A DNA stretch of 45,403 bases from Escherichia phage ECBP5. The DNA is taken from the sequence record NC_027330.1; one strand, written 5' to 3'. The notes below the pieces were generated by a model, which was given only the letters and a program-made list of their open reading frames with translations, searched no databases and was not told the DNA's origin. The number at the start of each line of letters is the position of its first letter. The stretch's first letter is position 1. Shown one piece after another: positions 1,961 to 43,588 of the stretch. Both the position numbers and the translations under genes were made by a program.

Positions 1961-4594
1961 ATGTACACTAGCGATGAGCTTTACCAGAAACAACTTGAGC
2001 TAGAAGGGGAGATGCATGGCTACGGTGTTACTCGCTTTGACCGTAACAACCAACGTGCGATTGATAGCGGTACACCTTCAGACACTGATTGGAACCGCCG
2101 TTTACTTTCTAACTTCATTGAGCCTATGGTGAAGGGTATTAATGCTTATAAGGAGTACTACAAGACTAAAGCTGGACGGCCTACAGTGGCTTTAAAGTAC
2201 ATCCGGCAGGTGCAGCCAGAGCAAGCGGCATACATCGCCATTAAGAACATTCTGGATGTGCTGGGTAGTACAACATTTGATGCTAACTGGCTTGTTACCA
2301 CTATTGGGCGTAGGATTGAAGACCAAGTAAGATTTACTAAGCTTGAGGAGGCTGCACCTAAGTATGTAGGCAAGGTTAAGGATAGCTTAGCTAAGCGCAA
2401 CTCTCTCCAGTATGCACACCAGCATAAGGTACTGGTCGCTACTGAGAAGAAGCTAGCGGAGAATCCAGACCGTGCTCAGCTTGAGCTGCCACGCTGGCAG
2501 GAGTGGGCTGAGGAGGATTGCAAGCACGTTGGTAGCTTGCTGGTCAATATCTTTGAGCAGTGTATTCTGTTTGAGGGTGAGCCAGTAATCCGCAAGGAGG
2601 TGCAGACAGTTCGCAAAGGTACACTGGTCTTCATCAAGCCTACTGAGAAAGTTACCAAGTGGATTCATGAGTTCAGAGAGGCTATTGGCGGGCTTGCTCC
2701 AGCTTACGCACCTTGCGTAGTTCCTCCGCTTGATTGGACTTCCCCATTTACTGGCGGGTTCCATACTGAAGCTGTTAGCAGCACTCTACATCTTGCTAAG
2801 GTTCGCAACAAGCGCCACCTGCGCAAGCTGACTAAAGAGCAGATGCCAGCAGTCTACAAGGCTGTAAATAACTTGCAGAAAGTGCGCTGGCGTATCTCTG
2901 AGCGTGTACTGGCAACCGCTAATACACTAGTGGAGCTGGGCTTGCCTTATGCGCTGCCGTCAAAGGATGAAAGCGACTGGAAAGAAAAGAATCCATGCCC
3001 TGTACCTGAGTACCTGCAAGACCTGCGAGGCGAGCAGCTGAAAGCGGCGCTTACTGCCAGCCAGTGGGAGGCTTTTCAAGAGTGGAAACAACTGGCACGC
3101 CAGAACTACGACGAGGAGAGCGAGCGCGTAGCAAGCTTTAGGGAAGTTGTTCGTACTTTAGGGCAGGCTAACCGCTACGTTGGCTTTGATGCAATCTACT
3201 TTGTGTACACGCTGGACTTTCGCGGGCGTGTCTACTGCCAGAGCAGCCTTGTAAGCCCACAGGGTGGCGACTTGCAGAAAGCCCTCATCAAGTTTGCGGA
3301 TGGTATGAAGCTGGGTGAGCGCGGCGAGTACTGGTTCAAGGTGCATGGCGCTAACGAATGGGGCTGGGATAAGAAGACCTTTGATGAGCGCGTAGCTCTG
3401 GTCAGCGAACCTGAGTTCTGCGAGATGTGCCTAGACATTGCCAGTGACCCAGTGACCTTCAATGACTGGATTAAGGCCGATAAGCCGTGGCAGTTCCTCA
3501 ACTGGTGCTTTGAGTATGCTGACTTCCTGAAGCATGTGCAATCAGCTGGCAACCCACAGGACTTTGTAAGCTATATCCCTTGTGCAATGGATGGTTCTTG
3601 CTCTGGCATCCAGCACTACTCTGCAATGCTGCGCGATACTGTTGGCGGTACTGCTGTTAACTTGGTTAACTCTGACAAGCCTAATGACATCTACGGAGAG
3701 GTCTGCAAGGTGACTATTAAAGAGCTGCAAGCAATTGCTGACGGCTCACAGGTATATGACAGCAAGATTGACCCTGTATTAGCTCAGCAGCTGGCGCAGG
3801 AGTGGCTACGTCTGCAACCAAATCGCAGCCTGACCAAGAAACCTGTTATGACCCTGCCTTACGGCAGCACTCAGTTAACCTGCCGTGAGCATGTTAGCCA
3901 GTGGCTTAAAGATTTGCAGAAGGAGGAGAACAAGCGAGCTAAGGCAGAGTTCAGAGAGCCTATGAAGGTACACGCTTTCGGCGATGCAGACAGCGCTATG
4001 CCGCTAAAGTTTGCTGAGTCTCTTATGACTAGCATTGTTTGGCACTCTATCGGCAAGGTTGTAGTAGCTGCGAGGGCTGGTATGGCTTACATCAAAGCCG
4101 TAACAAGCTCAGTGGCTAAGATGAATATGCCGCTTGAGTGGACTACTCCAACAGGCTTTATTGTCCGTCAGGAGATTTACCAGTTCACAACACGTCAGGT
4201 AAATACTCAGCTGCTGGGTGGAACTAAGTTTGTGGTCAGCACTAAGAGTAAAGATATTGATTATCATCGTATGATTAACTCCTGTGCGCCTAACTTTGTT
4301 CACTCAATGGATGCGAGCCACCTTACACTGGCAACTAACTACTTTGCAGATGCAGGTATTAGCAGCATTGCAGTAATCCATGATAGCTTTGGCACACATG
4401 CAGGAGCCACTGACCTGCTGCGTGAGCGTCTGCGAGCTTCAATGGTAGATATGTACGAACAGCATGACGTTATCACTAACTTCCTTGCTGAAACTGAGGG
4501 CAGACTTATGACAGCTTTTGAGCACATTCGAGTGCCAGAGCGTGGTGAGCTGCAACTTGATAGCATTAATCAATCTACATACGCTTTTGCGTGA
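1961..4594 (+). CDS. Single-subunit DNA-directed RNA polymerase (T7 gene 1 homologue)
   Basis: 877 aa; T7 RNAP-like segments DGSCSGIQHYSAMLRD, APNFVHSMDASHL, HDSFGTHA and C-terminal ...YAFA. Confidence 0.95.
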   Translation: MYTSDELYQKQLELEGEMHGYGVTRFDRNNQRAIDSGTPSDTDWNRRLLSNFIEPMVKGINAYKEYYKTKAGRPTVALKYIRQVQPEQAAYIAIKNILDVLGSTTFDANWLVTTIGRRIEDQVRFTKLEEAAPKYVGKVKDSLAKRNSLQYAHQHKVLVATEKKLAENPDRAQLELPRWQEWAEEDCKHVGSLLVNIFEQCILFEGEPVIRKEVQTVRKGTLVFIKPTEKVTKWIHEFREAIGGLAPAYAPCVVPPLDWTSPFTGGFHTEAVSSTLHLAKVRNKRHLRKLTKEQMPAVYKAVNNLQKVRWRISERVLATANTLVELGLPYALPSKDESDWKEKNPCPVPEYLQDLRGEQLKAALTASQWEAFQEWKQLARQNYDEESERVASFREVVRTLGQANRYVGFDAIYFVYTLDFRGRVYCQSSLVSPQGGDLQKALIKFADGMKLGERGEYWFKVHGANEWGWDKKTFDERVALVSEPEFCEMCLDIASDPVTFNDWIKADKPWQFLNWCFEYADFLKHVQSAGNPQDFVSYIPCAMDGSCSGIQHYSAMLRDTVGGTAVNLVNSDKPNDIYGEVCKVTIKELQAIADGSQVYDSKIDPVLAQQLAQEWLRLQPNRSLTKKPVMTLPYGSTQLTCREHVSQWLKDLQKEENKRAKAEFREPMKVHAFGDADSAMPLKFAESLMTSIVWHSIGKVVVAARAGMAYIKAVTSSVAKMNMPLEWTTPTGFIVRQEIYQFTTRQVNTQLLGGTKFVVSTKSKDIDYHRMINSCAPNFVHSMDASHLTLATNYFADAGISSIAVIHDSFGTHAGATDLLRERLRASMVDMYEQHDVITNFLAETEGRLMTAFEHIRVPERGELQLDSINQSTYAFA

Positions 4595-5994: not shown

Positions 5995-6078
5995 GTACTA
6001 GTTTGATAGTACAGTTGTTGAGAGTTATTCTCAGTCTAGTATACTAGACTAGACCGAATCGTACTAGTTGGCTAGTAC
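5995..6078. repeat. Cluster of three short palindromes
   Basis: GTACTAGTTTGATAGTAC, AGTCTAGTATACTAGACT and GTACTAGTTGGCTAGTAC in tandem. Confidence 0.7.
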
Positions 6079-6153: not shown

Positions 6154-6175
6154 TTTAGGCACTACAATAGGGAGC
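6154..6175 (+). promoter_or_regulatory. Phage-RNAP promoter candidate (consensus copy)
   Basis: TTTAGGCACTACAATAGGGAGC; resembles the T7-class promoter layout (CACTA..ATAGG core, +1 G). Confidence 0.6.
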
Positions 6176-6274
6176 AAGCTAAGTAAGTTAAGTAAGCTAT
6201 AGTAAGCTAACTAAAGCTTAGTAAGCTCCCCTCTTTCCCTCTTTATAGAGGGATATAATATAGTAAGCCTTATC

Positions 6275-6313
6275 AGCCCTCTTGAGTGTAGTAGCTCAGG
6301 AGGGCTTTATTTT
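6275..6313 (+). terminator. Rho-independent terminator candidate
   Basis: 12-bp stem AGCCCTCTTGAG/CTCAGGAGGGCT (one mismatch) followed by TTATTTT. Confidence 0.6.
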
Positions 6314-6331
6314 GTCTAGTACACTAGACTG
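6313..6331. repeat. Palindrome AGTCTAGTACACTAGACT family copy
   Basis: GTCTAGTACACTAGACTGG. Confidence 0.7.
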
Positions 6332-6335
6332 GAGA

Positions 6336-6357
6336 CTTAGGCACTCCAATAGATAAC
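6336..6357 (+). promoter_or_regulatory. Phage-RNAP promoter candidate (variant)
   Basis: CTTAGGCACTCCAATAGATAAC; two substitutions relative to consensus. Confidence 0.45.
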
Positions 6358-6375
6358 TAATCAACGGAGCAGTTT

Positions 6376-9541: not shown

Positions 9542-9578
9542 GCCACTTCGGTGGCTTTAGTATAGTGTACTAGACTGG
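9541..9578 (+). terminator. Hairpin with TTCG loop plus partial palindrome-family copy
   Basis: GCCAC-TTCG-GTGGC followed by TTT, then AGTGTACTAGACTGG. Confidence 0.4.
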
Positions 9579-9585
9579 AGTTAAT

Positions 9586-13802: not shown

Positions 13803-14567
13803 ATGTCTTTAGATAACTTTGACTTCGGCGCAGACCTAGCAGAAGCGTCTGGTGTCAAACGAGTAAACCCTGAAGTTGGCTTGCACTTTGCTCGTTTGCG
13901 TAGTGTGATTCACTTAGGCTCAATTGCTGCCATGTACCGTGGAAAGCCAAAGCCACCAGTTAACAAGGCTGCTTTCATCTTTGAACTTAAGGGCGACCTT
14001 GATGAGATTGATGACCTGCACCCTGACAACGGTGAGCCATTGTGCATCGGCATCGGGGTTAACCTTACCAAAGGTGACAATGCCAAGCTCACAGAAGTTA
14101 TGGCAGCTCTCATCTCTAAGAAGGAGATGGAGGAAGGTACTGTCAAAGGTATGGATGACCTGATTGGTCGTGTCTGCCAGCTTGACCTGAAGGGCAGTGA
14201 TGCCAAGGGTGATGACGGTAAGCCTAAGTACGTTGACATCAAATCACTCAGCCCTGTGGCTAAGGCATTCGCCGCACAGATTCCTGAGCTGTCAGTAGCT
14301 GGCGTAGGTCACTGCCGCCTGTCTCAGCTGTCTATGGCTGCGATGGATGAGCTGAACGTGTTCCTCGATGTCCAAGAGGGCATCATGAAATCTGAGGAGT
14401 GGAAAGCAGGAACGCACCCAGCAATCGCTCTGGTAGAGGAAATCCGCAAGGAGCGTCCGAACTATGCCAAGGCTGAGAAGAAGTCTGACAAAGGCGCTGA
14501 CGAGCCACAGGGCGAGCAGGAGCCGTCTAAGCCAGCTGAGCAGATGAACACCGATGAGGAGTTCTAG
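13803..14567 (+). CDS. Putative ssDNA-binding protein (T7 gp2.5-like by size and tail); acidic C-terminus ending in Phe
   Basis: AGGAGAAAC RBS before ATG 13803; C-terminus ...EQEPSKPAEQMNTDEEF; N-terminal DNFDFGA motif shared with the exonuclease; SSB call is an inference. Confidence 0.6.
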   Translation: MSLDNFDFGADLAEASGVKRVNPEVGLHFARLRSVIHLGSIAAMYRGKPKPPVNKAAFIFELKGDLDEIDDLHPDNGEPLCIGIGVNLTKGDNAKLTEVMAALISKKEMEEGTVKGMDDLIGRVCQLDLKGSDAKGDDGKPKYVDIKSLSPVAKAFAAQIPELSVAGVGHCRLSQLSMAAMDELNVFLDVQEGIMKSEEWKAGTHPAIALVEEIRKERPNYAKAEKKSDKGADEPQGEQEPSKPAEQMNTDEEF

Positions 14568-14609
14568 TCTAGTACACTAGACTGAAGCCGTACTAGTTAG
14601 CTAGTACGG
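14564..14609. repeat. Two adjacent palindromes (family copies)
   Basis: TCTAGTCTAGTACACTAGACTGA and CCGTACTAGTTAGCTAGTACGG. Confidence 0.7.
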
Positions 14610-14610
14610 T

Positions 14611-14633
14611 ATTAGGCACTACAATAGGAATAG
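14611..14633 (+). promoter_or_regulatory. Phage-RNAP promoter candidate (consensus copy)
   Basis: ATTAGGCACTACAATAGGAATAG. Confidence 0.6.
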
Positions 14634-14755: not shown

Positions 14756-14779
14756 TATTAAGCACTACAATAGGAATAG
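14756..14779 (+). promoter_or_regulatory. Phage-RNAP promoter candidate
   Basis: CTATTAAGCACTACAATAGGAATAG. Confidence 0.55.
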
Positions 14780-14875: not shown

Positions 14876-15235
14876 ATGGCATTTGTAATCAAATCTGATG
14901 TATCCAGTCGTATCGTAGCTGGCTCTTTCAAAAAGTCTGAGTTCTTCTATGTAGCTGATGAAGCTACTGGTGAGCTGGTTGGTAAGAAGTCTCACGACAT
15001 TCGTGAAGAAGCTGAACTGGAGCTGGCTGGTCTGGCAGGTCTGGAAGCTGGTCTGGAGTTCGCTAAGGCTCAGTTCCCTAAACTGTCCACTAAAGCTCAG
15101 GTTGGCAAAGCCAACGTAATCTCCGAGTATCTGGCTTGGGAAGCAGCTGGTAAGCCAGTTAAGTCTGTTGAAGAAGCAGACTCTGAAGAAGTACCGGAAG
15201 CTCCAGAAGCTGCCGCAGAAGACGAAACATTCTAA
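14876..15235 (+). CDS. Acidic 119-aa protein with SSB-like acidic C-terminal tail ending in Phe; probably highly expressed
   Basis: Preceded by three promoter-like motifs and followed by a strong terminator; net negative charge; C-terminus EAPEAAAEDETF. Confidence 0.75.
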   Translation: MAFVIKSDVSSRIVAGSFKKSEFFYVADEATGELVGKKSHDIREEAELELAGLAGLEAGLEFAKAQFPKLSTKAQVGKANVISEYLAWEAAGKPVKSVEEADSEEVPEAPEAAAEDETF

Positions 15236-15241
15236 TAAACT

Positions 15242-15279
15242 GCCCCATTGGTCAATTCGACCTTTGGGGCTTATTTTTG
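15242..15279 (+). terminator. Rho-independent terminator
   Basis: GCCCCATTGGTCAATTCGACCTTTGGGGC hairpin followed by TTATTTTTG. Confidence 0.65.
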
Positions 15280-15290
15280 TTGGAGGGTTT

Positions 15291-15413
15291 ATGCCTGTTT
15301 TCAAAAGGGTTTGTATGCTGTGTGGTACAGCGTTTTCTCCGGTTAAGAAAAGTCCATTCCTTTGCATAAGGTGTTACAGGAGTTGTGTTAAAGAGAGGGC
15401 TACTAATGTTTGA
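15291..15413 (+). CDS. Small zinc-ribbon-like protein (40 aa)
   Basis: GGAGGG RBS 5 nt upstream; CxxC...CxxC (CMLCG...CIRCY); stop overlaps the exonuclease start; not in ORF track. Confidence 0.4.
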   Translation: MPVFKRVCMLCGTAFSPVKKSPFLCIRCYRSCVKERATNV

Positions 15414-16491
15414 TAACTTCGACTTTGGGGCTGAGGTAACTGAACGTGTAAGCCCTGTAAAGCTGTGGCCTACTGAGGGTAGTGTGGTTGGCTTAGTAGA
15501 TGCTGACCTGTTGCCATATAACATTGCTTATGGCCTTGACCCGCTGAAGGTATTGCGAGCACAGAACAGAGTAGAGTCAGGTGACTGCTCCAGTATTAGC
15601 GAGACACCAGAGTTTATTGATGCTGCTGAGTCTATGGCTACCCGCATGAACAACTGGCTTGAGGAAGCTGGCTGTGATGCTGCCATTCCATATATGACGA
15701 AATCAGATAGCAACTTCAGGCTTGATGTAGCTTTCTCCAGACCGTACAAAGGTCAGCGTAAGAAGGAGAAGCCACCATTCTTCTATGAGTTGCGTGACTT
15801 CCTTATCAGCCACATGGGTGCTGTGATGTCAGATGGTGAGGAGGCTGATGACCTTATCTCTATGGAGGCTGAGCGTCGCAACAAGCTGCTTGAGGAACAG
15901 GGCATTGTATTAGGCTCACCTACTCATAAAGAGTTCTGTGACTTTGTTATCATCTCATCTGACAAGGATAGCCGCATCACAGCTGGCAGACACTATGACC
16001 CTTATCACATGAAGCTCACCTTTGGTACACCTGTTGGTGAGCTTGAGCCTGTTTATAAAGACGGGAAGATTAAGACTATCAAGGGTAGCGGCTTGCGCTT
16101 CTTTTATGCTCAGCTTCTAATGGGCGACCAGATTGATAATTACACTGGTATCCCTCGCTACAGGTTGCAGAAGGTCTACGAGCTGCTTGGTCAGCTTAAG
16201 ACAGAGCAAGAGCTTTATTATGCTGTACTTGAAGCTTATAAAGATAAGTATGGCAAGGGTATGGTGGTGGAAAACTACCGTGGAACTAAGAAGTTCTATG
16301 ATGACTACATGGATGACTTTGGAGTACCGCCACCTGATTATGAACTTTGGAAAGGCAAGAAAGCTTTCCTCACACCTTATCAGCTGATGGTAGAGCAAGG
16401 GAGACTTGCGTACATGCAGAAGTTTAAGGGTGACATCTGGAGAGCTAATTGCAAGCTTCCATCAGGTGGAGACTTGAGCGCATGGAGTTAA
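15406..16491 (+). CDS. 5'-3' exonuclease (T7 gp6-like, FEN family)
   Basis: VGLVDADLLPY, IISSDKDSRI and GDQIDNYTGIP parallel T7 gp6 segments; start at ATG 15406 (AGAGAGG RBS). Confidence 0.88.
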   Translation: MFDNFDFGAEVTERVSPVKLWPTEGSVVGLVDADLLPYNIAYGLDPLKVLRAQNRVESGDCSSISETPEFIDAAESMATRMNNWLEEAGCDAAIPYMTKSDSNFRLDVAFSRPYKGQRKKEKPPFFYELRDFLISHMGAVMSDGEEADDLISMEAERRNKLLEEQGIVLGSPTHKEFCDFVIISSDKDSRITAGRHYDPYHMKLTFGTPVGELEPVYKDGKIKTIKGSGLRFFYAQLLMGDQIDNYTGIPRYRLQKVYELLGQLKTEQELYYAVLEAYKDKYGKGMVVENYRGTKKFYDDYMDDFGVPPPDYELWKGKKAFLTPYQLMVEQGRLAYMQKFKGDIWRANCKLPSGGDLSAWS

Positions 16492-24008: not shown

Positions 24009-24030
24009 ATTAGGCACTACAATAGGAGAA
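24009..24030 (+). promoter_or_regulatory. Phage-RNAP promoter candidate (consensus copy) driving the capsid gene
   Basis: ATTAGGCACTACAATAGGAGAA. Confidence 0.6.
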
Positions 24031-24091: not shown

Positions 24092-25204
24092 ATGTCTAGC
24101 GTTAACAATCTGGTAAACCCTGCTGTCTCAGTCTCTGGTGAGGTAGATACACTACTCATTGAGAAGTTTGATGGTCAGGTTAAGTTGGCTTATAAAGAGA
24201 TGGTCAACATGATGCGCTACTTCGACCTGAAGGAAGTGGTAGGCACTAACTCCGTTTCTAACAAATACATGGGTACTACCCAAGTTCAGGGCTTAGCTCC
24301 TGGTGCTGATGTTAAAGGTACACAAGTTGAGTTCGACAAAAACCAGCTGGTAATCGACACTGTTGTTATTGCACGTAACAACGTAGGTATTCTTGCTGAC
24401 GTTCAGGATGACATCAATACCAAAGGTAAGCTGGCAGTAGATCAAGTAGAACAGCTGGGTATGATGGAAGACCGTATGCTTATCCAGCAGATTGCCTACG
24501 GTGCTATCAAGAACACCAAGACTAAGCGCACTAAGCCACGTGTTCGTGGTCATGGTTTCTCTGTTGATATTAAAGTCAAAGCAGAAACTATGGAGTACCC
24601 TAATGCTGTTCAGGCATCTCTGGAAGCTGTTCTGGAAGCTATGGTCAAGCAGAACGTGCCTATCCAGAAGATTGCTGCAATCATGGACTGGACGTACTTC
24701 AACACCCTGCGTGATGCAGAGCGTATTGTTAATGCCACCTACACCACTGCTTCTGGTACTACCATTAATGGCTTTGTACTGAAGTCTTACAACCTGCCAA
24801 TCATCCCCACTAACCAGATGCCTAACAAAGACCGTGACCAGCAGGACTTGGATGGCAACACCTCAGCACACCACCTACTGTCTAACGCTAATAACGGCTA
24901 TCGTTATGACGTACTGGACTCTGGTGATGACCGCATGGATAACGTAGTAGCTGTCCTGTTCGGTTCTGAAGGCCTGATGGTTGGTCGTTCAATCTCACTG
25001 CAAGGTAAGATTTGGATGAATGACAACAACAAGACTTGGTACATCGACTCTTGGATGTCTGAGGGTGCTATCCCTGACCGTTGGGAGCATCTTGGTGTCG
25101 TCCGTGTAGTTCCAGATGCATCTGCTTCTGAAGACGTGGCTGTTCGTAAGCGCGCTAACCGTAAGGTTGTTCCTGTCACTACGACTCCACTGGCTACTTC
25201 TTAA
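24092..25204 (+). CDS. Major capsid protein
   Basis: 370 aa; own promoter, TAAGGAG RBS and strong downstream terminator; position equivalent to T7 gene 10; highly biased codon usage. Confidence 0.8.
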   Translation: MSSVNNLVNPAVSVSGEVDTLLIEKFDGQVKLAYKEMVNMMRYFDLKEVVGTNSVSNKYMGTTQVQGLAPGADVKGTQVEFDKNQLVIDTVVIARNNVGILADVQDDINTKGKLAVDQVEQLGMMEDRMLIQQIAYGAIKNTKTKRTKPRVRGHGFSVDIKVKAETMEYPNAVQASLEAVLEAMVKQNVPIQKIAAIMDWTYFNTLRDAERIVNATYTTASGTTINGFVLKSYNLPIIPTNQMPNKDRDQQDLDGNTSAHHLLSNANNGYRYDVLDSGDDRMDNVVAVLFGSEGLMVGRSISLQGKIWMNDNNKTWYIDSWMSEGAIPDRWEHLGVVRVVPDASASEDVAVRKRANRKVVPVTTTPLATS

Positions 25205-25219
25205 TTATAAGTGCCACTT

Positions 25220-25250
25220 TGCCCCGTCCTCTTGGATGGGGCTTATTTTT
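25220..25250 (+). terminator. Rho-independent terminator (T-phi-like, after capsid gene)
   Basis: GCCCCGTCC-TCTT-GGATGGGGC hairpin followed by TTATTTTTG. Confidence 0.7.
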
Positions 25251-25263
25251 GTTAGGAGGCTGA

Positions 25264-25893
25264 ATGCAGCTCTATGTCAATACAAGACTAGATGCAATCA
25301 ACTATGTCCTCAGCTGTATTGGGCTTGCACCAGTTGACTCAGAAGATGATTACAACTTGGATGTTGCTCAAGCTGGTGGGATGGTTGATAAGGTTTCTAG
25401 GACTATTCAAAACAACAAGGGTAGGGGCTATTGGTTTAATCGAGAGGCTAACCACAAGCTTGCTCCAGACCCTGTCACCGGTAATGTGCTGATACCAAAC
25501 AACACGTTAGCTGTCTATCGTTTTGATAACTTCAACAGACCAGCAAAGATTGCTACAAGGGGTCGTGCCCTTTATGACACTGCTACCCACGGATTTGATA
25601 TGCGTGGATTGGCTAACAGTGATGGTTTTATGCACCTGATGCTAGTTACTCAAATAGATTATGGTGACTTGCCACAAACTGCTAAGGATGCCATAGCATC
25701 TCAGGCTGGTATGATGTTTGCTCGTAGTAACGAGATGGACGTTAACCGCATTAAGGTACTGGCTGGTGAAGCCGAGGAAGCTATGTGGGGTCTTGAGTGT
25801 GAGGAAACAACACAGTCTCAGGCTAATGCATTCAAGGATAGCAGGAGCATGGCACAGTTTAACTTTGTTGTTGGTGGGTATAACGATATTTAG
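25264..25893 (+). CDS. Tail tubular protein A (T7 gp11-like)
   Basis: 209 aa; N-terminal AINYVLSCIGLAPVDSEDD parallels T7 gp11 [20 protein letters not shown]. Confidence 0.8.
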   Translation: MQLYVNTRLDAINYVLSCIGLAPVDSEDDYNLDVAQAGGMVDKVSRTIQNNKGRGYWFNREANHKLAPDPVTGNVLIPNNTLAVYRFDNFNRPAKIATRGRALYDTATHGFDMRGLANSDGFMHLMLVTQIDYGDLPQTAKDAIASQAGMMFARSNEMDVNRIKVLAGEAEEAMWGLECEETTQSQANAFKDSRSMAQFNFVVGGYNDI

Positions 25894-38283: not shown

Positions 38284-38305
38284 ATTAGGCACTACAATAG
38301 GAGAA
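38284..38305 (+). promoter_or_regulatory. Phage-RNAP promoter candidate (consensus copy)
   Basis: ATTAGGCACTACAATAGGAGAA followed by AGTAAG-repeat leader. Confidence 0.6.
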
Positions 38306-38422
38306 AGCTAAAGTAAGTACAGTAAGTAAACAGTAGCTATAAATAGCTATAGTAAGCTTTAGTTAGCCTAAGTAGTAACCTACTTATTGTCTTATTATAT
38401 TCTTTATAAGGAGAGCTATTAG

Positions 38423-39325: not shown

Positions 39326-39335
39326 TAAGGTTGGT

Positions 39336-39356
39336 CAGTCTAGTACGCTAGACTGG
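39336..39356. repeat. Palindrome family copy, terminator-like
   Basis: CAGTCTAGTACGCTAGACTGG followed by CCTCTTTCT. Confidence 0.6.
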
Positions 39357-39368
39357 CCTCTTTCTACT

Positions 39369-43033: not shown

Positions 43034-43486
43034 CTAGTGGCTGGTCAGGCAGCTGCTGTGAGCTGGCTAGGTGGCTTACGGATAGCCGATTGTGAGCAGC
43101 CAGTGAGCCGCTGTGGGCTTCAGCTCCGCTGTGGCTACGGTTGGCTTGCCAGTGGCTTGAGGCGCTCTGTGAGCTGCTGAGGGCTGTGGCTTGCTGTACT
43201 CGTGTGCTAGTACGCTGCTGTGTGTATCTGTCTTTAGTCTGATGGGCTACTGTCTTTAGTTTGCTGCACCACTGGTAGCTTATTGGGTAGCTCATAGGTA
43301 GCTTACAAGGCTCACAGCTTGCTGGTACTACTGAGGGCTTACTAGGTAGCTTGCTATCACTGACTAGGTAGCTGCTGTTAGTTCACTAGGTAGCTAGCTA
43401 TGGCTTACTAGGTAGTTACTAGGTGGATTGATGTAAGCTTACTCAAGCTCTCTCTTAGTGCATCATTCGATGCACAATATAAGAAG

Positions 43487-43510
43487 AATAAGACACTACA
43501 ATAAGAATAG
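43487..43510 (+). promoter_or_regulatory. Phage-RNAP promoter-like motif (variant) near presumed left end
   Basis: AATAAGACACTACAATAAGAATAG. Confidence 0.4.
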
Positions 43511-43588
43511 AGTACGCCTTGCCAACAGCTCTCATGAGCTATCTAGGTGGCTTACTATCACTTACATCCAACTAACTAGGAGGCTTAC

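Follow-up and report, generated by a model that had tools for sequence, protein, structure and literature searches.

Predicted Tφ-type terminators with a common tail behind the gp20-family and major capsid genes of the SP6-like Escherichia phage ECBP5

In the T7 paradigm, gene 10 is followed by the terminator Tφ and then by genes 11-12, with read-through giving a lower expression downstream of the terminator. To our knowledge, only one class I terminator serves the polymerase of T7 itself, whereas the genome of Escherichia phage ECBP5 (NC_027330.1; the window, that is, the whole stretch of 45,403 bp analysed here) carries, besides a predicted counterpart behind its major capsid gene, two further predicted terminators of the same class. 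We focus on two of the three, one located behind an acidic 119-residue gene (site 1) and the other behind the capsid gene (site 2), which have their 3' ends in common and are each directly followed by a ribosome-binding site (RBS). In the T7 record (NC_001604), the corresponding stretch reads hairpin-TTTTTTG-CTGAA-AGGAGG-AACTAT-ATG, the ATG being the start codon of gene 11, and the annotation puts Tφ at the G which follows the U-run (U6). A local phage promoter, the capsid gene and a strong terminator immediately downstream have been described for both T7 and LUZ100 (PMC10134795), and for SP6 and UAB_Phi78 Rho-independent terminators have been reported after gp8, after two genes of unknown function and after the capsid gene gp32 (PMC4837284). 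ECBP5 resembles the latter two phages in where its terminators lie, namely behind the capsid gene and behind the gene of the gp20 family, to which the 119-residue gene belongs.

We consider it probable that this complete SP6-like genome has three intrinsic terminators of Tφ type, that is, of class I (hairpin plus U-tract), and that sites 1 and 2 are among them, each closing a promoter-product-terminator unit, with a tail consensus kept by purifying selection and an RBS of generic type. They are new instances of a well-known element, and no new mechanism is implied. The original prediction, made from the sequence alone, that the 3' half of the terminator and the adjoining RBS recur almost unchanged at the two sites is borne out: site 1 reads TGGGGCTTATTTTTGTTGGAGGGTTTATG (15265-15293) and site 2 reads TGGGGCTTATTTTTGTTAGGAGGCTGAATG (25237-25266, one base later than the start of 25236 given originally), with an exact 17-mer, GGAGG and ATG in common. 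The 17-mer, TGGGGCTTATTTTTGTT, is found at 15265 and 25237 only, even when 3 mismatches are allowed throughout the window; its chance expectation is 0.12, and two or more matches arose in 0 of 100 dinucleotide shuffles. At each site it constitutes the 3' foot of the stem and the U-tract of a GC-rich hairpin. Past the 17-mer, nothing but (A)GGAGG and the ATG is common to both sites, the spacers being GTTT and CTGA, respectively, with a 1-nt indel.

At site 1, the hairpin GCCCCATTGGTCAATTCGACCTTTGGGGC (15242-15270, + strand; -19.0 kcal/mol for the hairpin only), which is kept in relatives with variation of the loop, is followed by the U-tract and G (TTATTTTTG, 15271-15279), by the Shine-Dalgarno (SD) sequence GGAGG (15282-15286) and by the ATG of the next open reading frame (ORF; 15291-15293); by analogy with T7 Tφ, transcripts would be released near G15279. 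At site 2, likewise on the + strand, the hairpin GCCCCGTCCTCTTGGATGGGGC (25221-25242; -18.3 kcal/mol for the hairpin only; 9-bp stem) is followed by TTATTTTTG (25243-25251), the SD sequence AGGAGG (25254-25259) and the ATG of the tail tubular protein A gene (25264-25266). Folding of the 60-64-nt contexts of the two hairpins gave z-scores of -2.6 (site 1) and -2.2 (site 2), and a terminator pattern scan ranked site 2 top and missed site 1, which has an internal loop. Both hairpins are co-oriented with the preceding gene and start 6 nt past the TAA of the 119-residue gene and 16 nt past the TAA of the capsid gene. The A-rich stretch upstream, the GC-clamped hairpin and the 3' U-tract are traits common to bacterial intrinsic terminators, and since every sequence feature of such terminators is present at both sites, the terminators originally proposed behind the two genes stand as predicted. 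An Rfam search of the whole window yielded 0 matches at the gathering threshold, and the signal ATCTGTT for class II termination by T7 RNA polymerase occurs 5 times in the window, but neither at nor near either site.

Like T7 Tφ, site 2 (i) directly follows a promoter-bearing capsid gene, (ii) consists of a GC-rich hairpin and a U-run terminated by G, and (iii) is succeeded, in the space of about 17 nt, by AGGAGG and the start codon of tail tubular protein A. This layout makes site 2 the positional equivalent of Tφ. Sequence homology between the two was not discernible by eye beyond the C-run and G-run arms and the U-run-G, and the relation is one of analogy or positional equivalence rather than demonstrable homology. 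When compared with Tφ, moreover, the window has a shorter stem at this site (9 bp, against a long one in Tφ), and the U-tract is interrupted (TTATTTTTG versus TTTTTTG).

The genes upstream are those originally named, an acidic 119-residue ORF and the major capsid gene, and both were also said to be highly expressed; that would be expected from the exact-consensus phage promoters at 14611 and 24009. The window holds a promoter-like repeat family of 8-10 copies, in which the exact consensus ATTAGGCACTACAATAGGA is found at 14611, 24009 and 38284. The copy at 14611-14629 (+ strand) is the first of a tandem pair 5' of the 119-residue gene, the second being ATTAAGCACTACAATAGGA at 14757-14775 (+ strand), and both are kept in relatives; the copy at 24009-24027 (+ strand) lies 5' of the capsid gene. 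One unit would thus comprise the promoters at 14611 and 14757, the 119-residue gene and the terminator starting at 15242, and the other the promoter at 24009, the capsid gene and the terminator starting at 25221. Generic bacterial intrinsic terminators differ in this regard, since here each terminator is paired with a phage promoter in what would be a short high-expression unit, which is probably read mainly by the single-subunit phage RNA polymerase. Most transcripts would stop close to the G that follows the U-tract (about 15279 at site 1, about 25251 at site 2) and yield abundant, hairpin-protected monocistronic messengers for the 119-residue protein and the capsid protein. With the SD sequence and start codon no more than 3 nt past the U-tract, only read-through transcripts would carry the RBS of the next gene, the SD sequence starting 3 nt further on. 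Hence, we propose that the products of the genes behind site 1 (a 40-residue ORF and the exonuclease gene) and tail tubular protein A behind site 2 are made in smaller amounts, at a fixed ratio.

The window represents a complete linear phage genome with direct terminal repeats of 208 bp, in which all long ORFs lie on the + strand. ECBP5 belongs to the SP6-like Autographiviridae and is related to Gajwadongvirus; its nearest relatives in GenBank are the Gajwadongvirus-type Autographiviridae PP99, JSF38, MR4, Roth32, RCIP0053 and vB_Kp_Z1. Its genes are arranged as in phage SP6, and an ORF of 877 residues (1961-4594) takes the place at which relatives have an annotated RNA polymerase gene. The two modules are almost unchanged, base for base, within the genus of ECBP5 as well as in an Edwardsiella phage; variation is confined to the loop of site 1. 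In VL73, KL01, Reminis and Nufs112, in which the 119-residue protein is 60-68% identical and the capsid protein about 70% identical, stems and loops are entirely different, but both sites still have GGGCTTATTTTTGTT with (A/G)GGAGG behind it. To extend the comparison, about 80 SP6-like loci were gathered with a 10-sequence alignment of portal proteins (79 loci), a single portal query having reached close relatives only. A strong hairpin lies 3' of the capsid gene in nearly all of the loci in which that gene was found; these hairpins range from -13 to -30 kcal/mol, differ in the sequences of stem and loop, and usually take the shape (A)TGCCC-stem-GGGY-TnTTTTG, in most cases directly followed by (A)GGAGG-N4-5-ATG. 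A terminator 3' of the gp20-family gene is present in most loci in which that gene was found, the hairpins of site 1 being recovered in fewer loci. From the differing stems and loops, we judged that structure rather than sequence is conserved. In all relatives examined, the modules reside at the same two syntenic positions, that is, after the gp20 homologue and after the capsid gene.

When IMG/VR was scanned for exact copies of the 15-mer GGGCTTATTTTTGTT, at least 120 matches were obtained. Of the 120 listed, 55 form the foot of a strong hairpin; most of these hairpins are of the type GCCCC...GGGGC and lie in contigs devoid of a homologue of the 119-residue protein, the capsid protein, the exonuclease and tail tubular protein A. 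The 11 listed matches that stem from relatives are all found at the two syntenic positions. That GGGCTTATTTTTGTT ends hairpins in many unrelated viral contigs marks it as a generic, convergently recurring terminator ending. Its retention across several genera of the present lineage, on the other hand, argues for a conserved lineage consensus and against a recent duplication or a mobile cassette; judging from the sequences compared, GGGCTTATTTTTGTT is, within this lineage, inherited and selected. The 21-mer GGGCTTATTTTTGTTRGGAGG, which comprises module and RBS and by its design cannot match site 1, was found in 4 IMG/VR contigs, all close relatives and all at the site between capsid and tail tubular protein A. 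It is thus the foot-and-tail consensus GCCC...GGGC-TTATTTTTGTT that would be held by purifying selection at both positions in several genera.

The third terminator, GCCCTCTTGAG...CTCAGGAGGGC plus TTTATTTTG (6276-6314, + strand), is of the same class, resides in a non-coding region behind a promoter at 6154 and has no RBS after it; the Edwardsiella relative possesses the same three terminators. Its tail is among the points which weigh against the interpretation given above. It differs from the TTATTTTTG of sites 1 and 2, which indicates that the polymerase tolerates both forms, and selection for a polymerase signal is therefore not by itself a full reason for the identity of the two sites. Likewise, in Molineuxvirinae proper (SP6, PP1, phD2B and Erwinia S2) the two tails differ by 3-8 edits, so that the shared tail is specific to a clade rather than universal. 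In SP6-type phages, moreover, the gene behind site 1 is small and has a weak RBS (TTGGAGAATAAATTATG), whereas in the clade of ECBP5 site 1 abuts the exonuclease slot and has its tail in common with site 2. Furthermore, hairpin interiors are site-specific, although the gene conversion considered below for related genera would be expected to homogenise interiors too. Finally, we infer from sequence that termination takes place, and with it its efficiency, the polymerase responsible (phage or host) and the read-through ratio.

The original prediction regarded the shared block as a mobile or recombining regulatory cassette. In its restricted form, this would mean that the 3' half and the RBS are actively homogenised by gene conversion, so that the two copies in ECBP5 are identical for this reason, which we consider rather unlikely. 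What speaks for it comes from related genera, where tail and RBS co-vary within a genome. Nearest-neighbour analysis places the module closest to its within-genome paralogue in KL01, Tola and AerP_220. In Tola and AerP_220, which belong to one genus, the hairpins of site 1 are identical between the phages, as are those of site 2, and the hairpins are thus site-specific; nevertheless, the tail reads TTTATTTTGCAGGAGG (with TTTATTTTG) at either site of Tola, but TTATTTTTGCAGGAGG (with TTATTTTTG) at either site of AerP_220. The same TA/AT swap is seen at both sites, against an identity of 86-87% in the surrounding 180 nt; by our own estimate, the probability that under independent neutral change the second site acquires this two-base change as well is about (0.13/3)^2, or roughly 0.002. 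In KL01 and Reminis, a block of 30 nt is the same at the two sites; it runs from GAGGGC over the SD sequence and the spacer TTTG to the ATG, while orthologous spacers between SD sequence and ATG vary freely in other phages. In Molineuxvirinae proper, lower stems are also sometimes identical within a genome, as for GCCCTACT in Erwinia S2 and GCCCTGTC in a Pm5460-like contig. Within the genus of ECBP5, however, 4 edits in RBS and spacer separate site 1 from site 2, and each module is site-specific and identical or closest to its orthologue (site 1 of the window equals that of the Edwardsiella phage). The 17-mer is, moreover, invariant across the whole clade, so that conservation alone suffices here; the identical blocks measure only 17-30 nt, and the interiors of the hairpins are never homogenised. 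For the related genera, then, occasional short-patch gene conversion on top of purifying selection would be the simplest reading, with no sign of it in the genus of ECBP5. It is tempting, if quite speculative, to extend this to SP6-like phages at large: their terminators would evolve in concert, short-patch gene conversion repeatedly carrying a block of 20-30 nt (3' foot of the stem, U-tract, SD sequence and start codon) from one of the two sites (post-gp20 and post-capsid) to the other while the interiors drift, and the same block would serve as a preferred landing pad, with homing endonucleases, a methylase and small ORFs inserting just after the RBS or the ATG. We think it doubtful that this holds.

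Pure convergence, in which unrelated terminators arrive at the same generic ending (GC clamp and U-tract) and at an optimal SD sequence, appears improbable. The 55 hairpins footed by GGGCTTATTTTTGTT among the 120 matches listed, mostly in contigs without homologues of the query proteins, speak for it, and the RBS is indeed common in the window: GGAGG-N3-9-ATG opens nine ORFs of at least 40 codons, mostly structural genes with TAAGGAGG-N4-5-ATG, and the + strand has 47 instances of GGAGG against 5 on the - strand. The resemblance of the two RBSs hence reflects the ordinary strong SD sequence of the phage. Yet the third terminator and the terminators of related clades use other tails, so that identity over exactly 17 nt is not forced, and lineage-specific variants of the tail common to both sites are not expected if the sites are independent.

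It had also been proposed that the module couples partial termination to re-initiation of translation of the next gene. The arrangement of a terminator followed by an RBS is indeed found at both sites, and partial termination is plausible; coupling by re-initiation draws on a thermodynamic hint at site 1 alone and appears weak. There, in a read-through context of 156 nt, the SD region at 15279-15285 is predicted to pair with 15230-15236, where the 119-residue gene has its Phe and stop codons, with pairing probabilities of 0.98-1.0 at six positions and 0.56 at 15285, whereas at site 2 the predicted pairing of the SD sequence is diffuse (probabilities 0.3-0.6, scattered partners). Among the relatives compared, the outer helix of site 1 was not seen outside the genus and displayed no covariation. 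Sequestration of the SD sequence was thus rejected as a general coupling device, being strong at site 1 only and not kept beyond the genus. For the same reasons, we regard it as highly improbable that the shared 3' end owes its existence to such a helix or, alternatively, to a trans-acting factor (an Hfq-like 3'-end binder or a phage protein controlling stability or translation): both terminated messengers would end in an identical ...GGGGCUUAUUUUUG, but no candidate factor was identified and no Rfam match was obtained.

That the two sites arose from a transposable or horizontally inserted terminator-RBS unit which landed after two genes is barely credible: near-identical copies do lie 10 kb apart, and site 1 is a hotspot with different cargo genes among relatives, but both sites are ancient and syntenic, the RBS is generic, no copies were found at non-syntenic positions in the relatives examined, the 17-mer has 2 copies rather than the many copies, terminal inverted repeats and target-site duplications of miniature inverted-repeat transposable elements, and the sole inverted repeat at the sites is the terminator stem, with hairpin interiors unrelated between the two copies.

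As for the genes that flank the two terminators, all of them are encoded on the + strand. The 119-residue gene (14876-15235) belongs to the SP6 gp20 family (phrog_4429) and encodes a protein with a pI of 4.52 (24 D+E versus 13 K+R) and a disordered acidic tail ending in Phe. Across the family, a disordered acidic C-terminal tail with an aromatic end (F or Y) is found in 34 of 37 distinct homologues and resembles the C-terminal tails of SSB. The predicted core consists of a β-hairpin and three helices (predicted local distance difference test score, pLDDT, 76), does not represent an OB fold and has no convincing neighbour in the PDB. Between the module of site 1 and the exonuclease gene lies an ORF of 40 residues with a CxxC...CxxC pattern (15291-15413), which sits on an insert of ~115 nt unique to ECBP5; in PP99, JSF38, Roth32 and the Edwardsiella phage, the ATG of site 1 is that of the exonuclease. 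In ECBP5, the 5'-3' exonuclease gene spans 15406-16491, its true start being MFDNFDFGAE. The major capsid protein gene (24092-25204) exhibits 96-99% identity to annotated major capsid proteins and is followed, behind site 2, by the gene of tail tubular protein A (25264-25893).

The surroundings of the third terminator (6154-6360) are of interest in their own right. The promoter at 6154 would drive a 144-nt, AT-rich and ORF-less transcript, full of TAAGTAAGCT-type repeats, up to the third terminator, and this transcript is predicted to fold strongly (minimum free energy -56.9 kcal/mol, z-score -5.3). The layout of a promoter and an AT-rich stretch resembles what we take to be that of the primary replication origin of T7. 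The unit is followed 3' by a palindrome and a promoter-like site at 6336, just upstream of the primase/helicase region. This perfect palindrome, GTCTAGTACACTAGAC, is present in five copies (6030-6054, 6310-6334, 9556-9580, 14563-14587 and 39334-39358) which adjoin promoters or terminators, and an analogous palindrome, GTCTCACATGTGAGAC, flanks the capsid terminators of six distant SP6-like contigs; a processing site or a protein-binding site are possible roles. In addition, short tandem and dispersed repeats (TAGCTATAGTAAGCT... and 4-6 copies of CTTACTAGGTAGCT) are located at 38284-38380 and 43325-43575, directly 3' of the phage promoters at 38284 and 43488, and are similar in composition to the repeat-rich leader at 6171-6230.

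Taken together, the predicted terminators add three promoter-to-terminator units to the transcription map of ECBP5 and likely mark the 3' ends of its two most abundant messengers. The Tφ arrangement, with the capsid gene, a terminator and the SD sequence of tail tubular protein A in succession, would be ancestral across the T7 and SP6 supergroup. The lineage consensus GCCC-stem-GGGC-TTATTTTTG may be used for the annotation of terminators in related phages or as a short part for synthetic biology. Finally, the hint of concerted evolution and the insertion hotspot behind one of the terminators constitute modest evolutionary curiosities of these phages.
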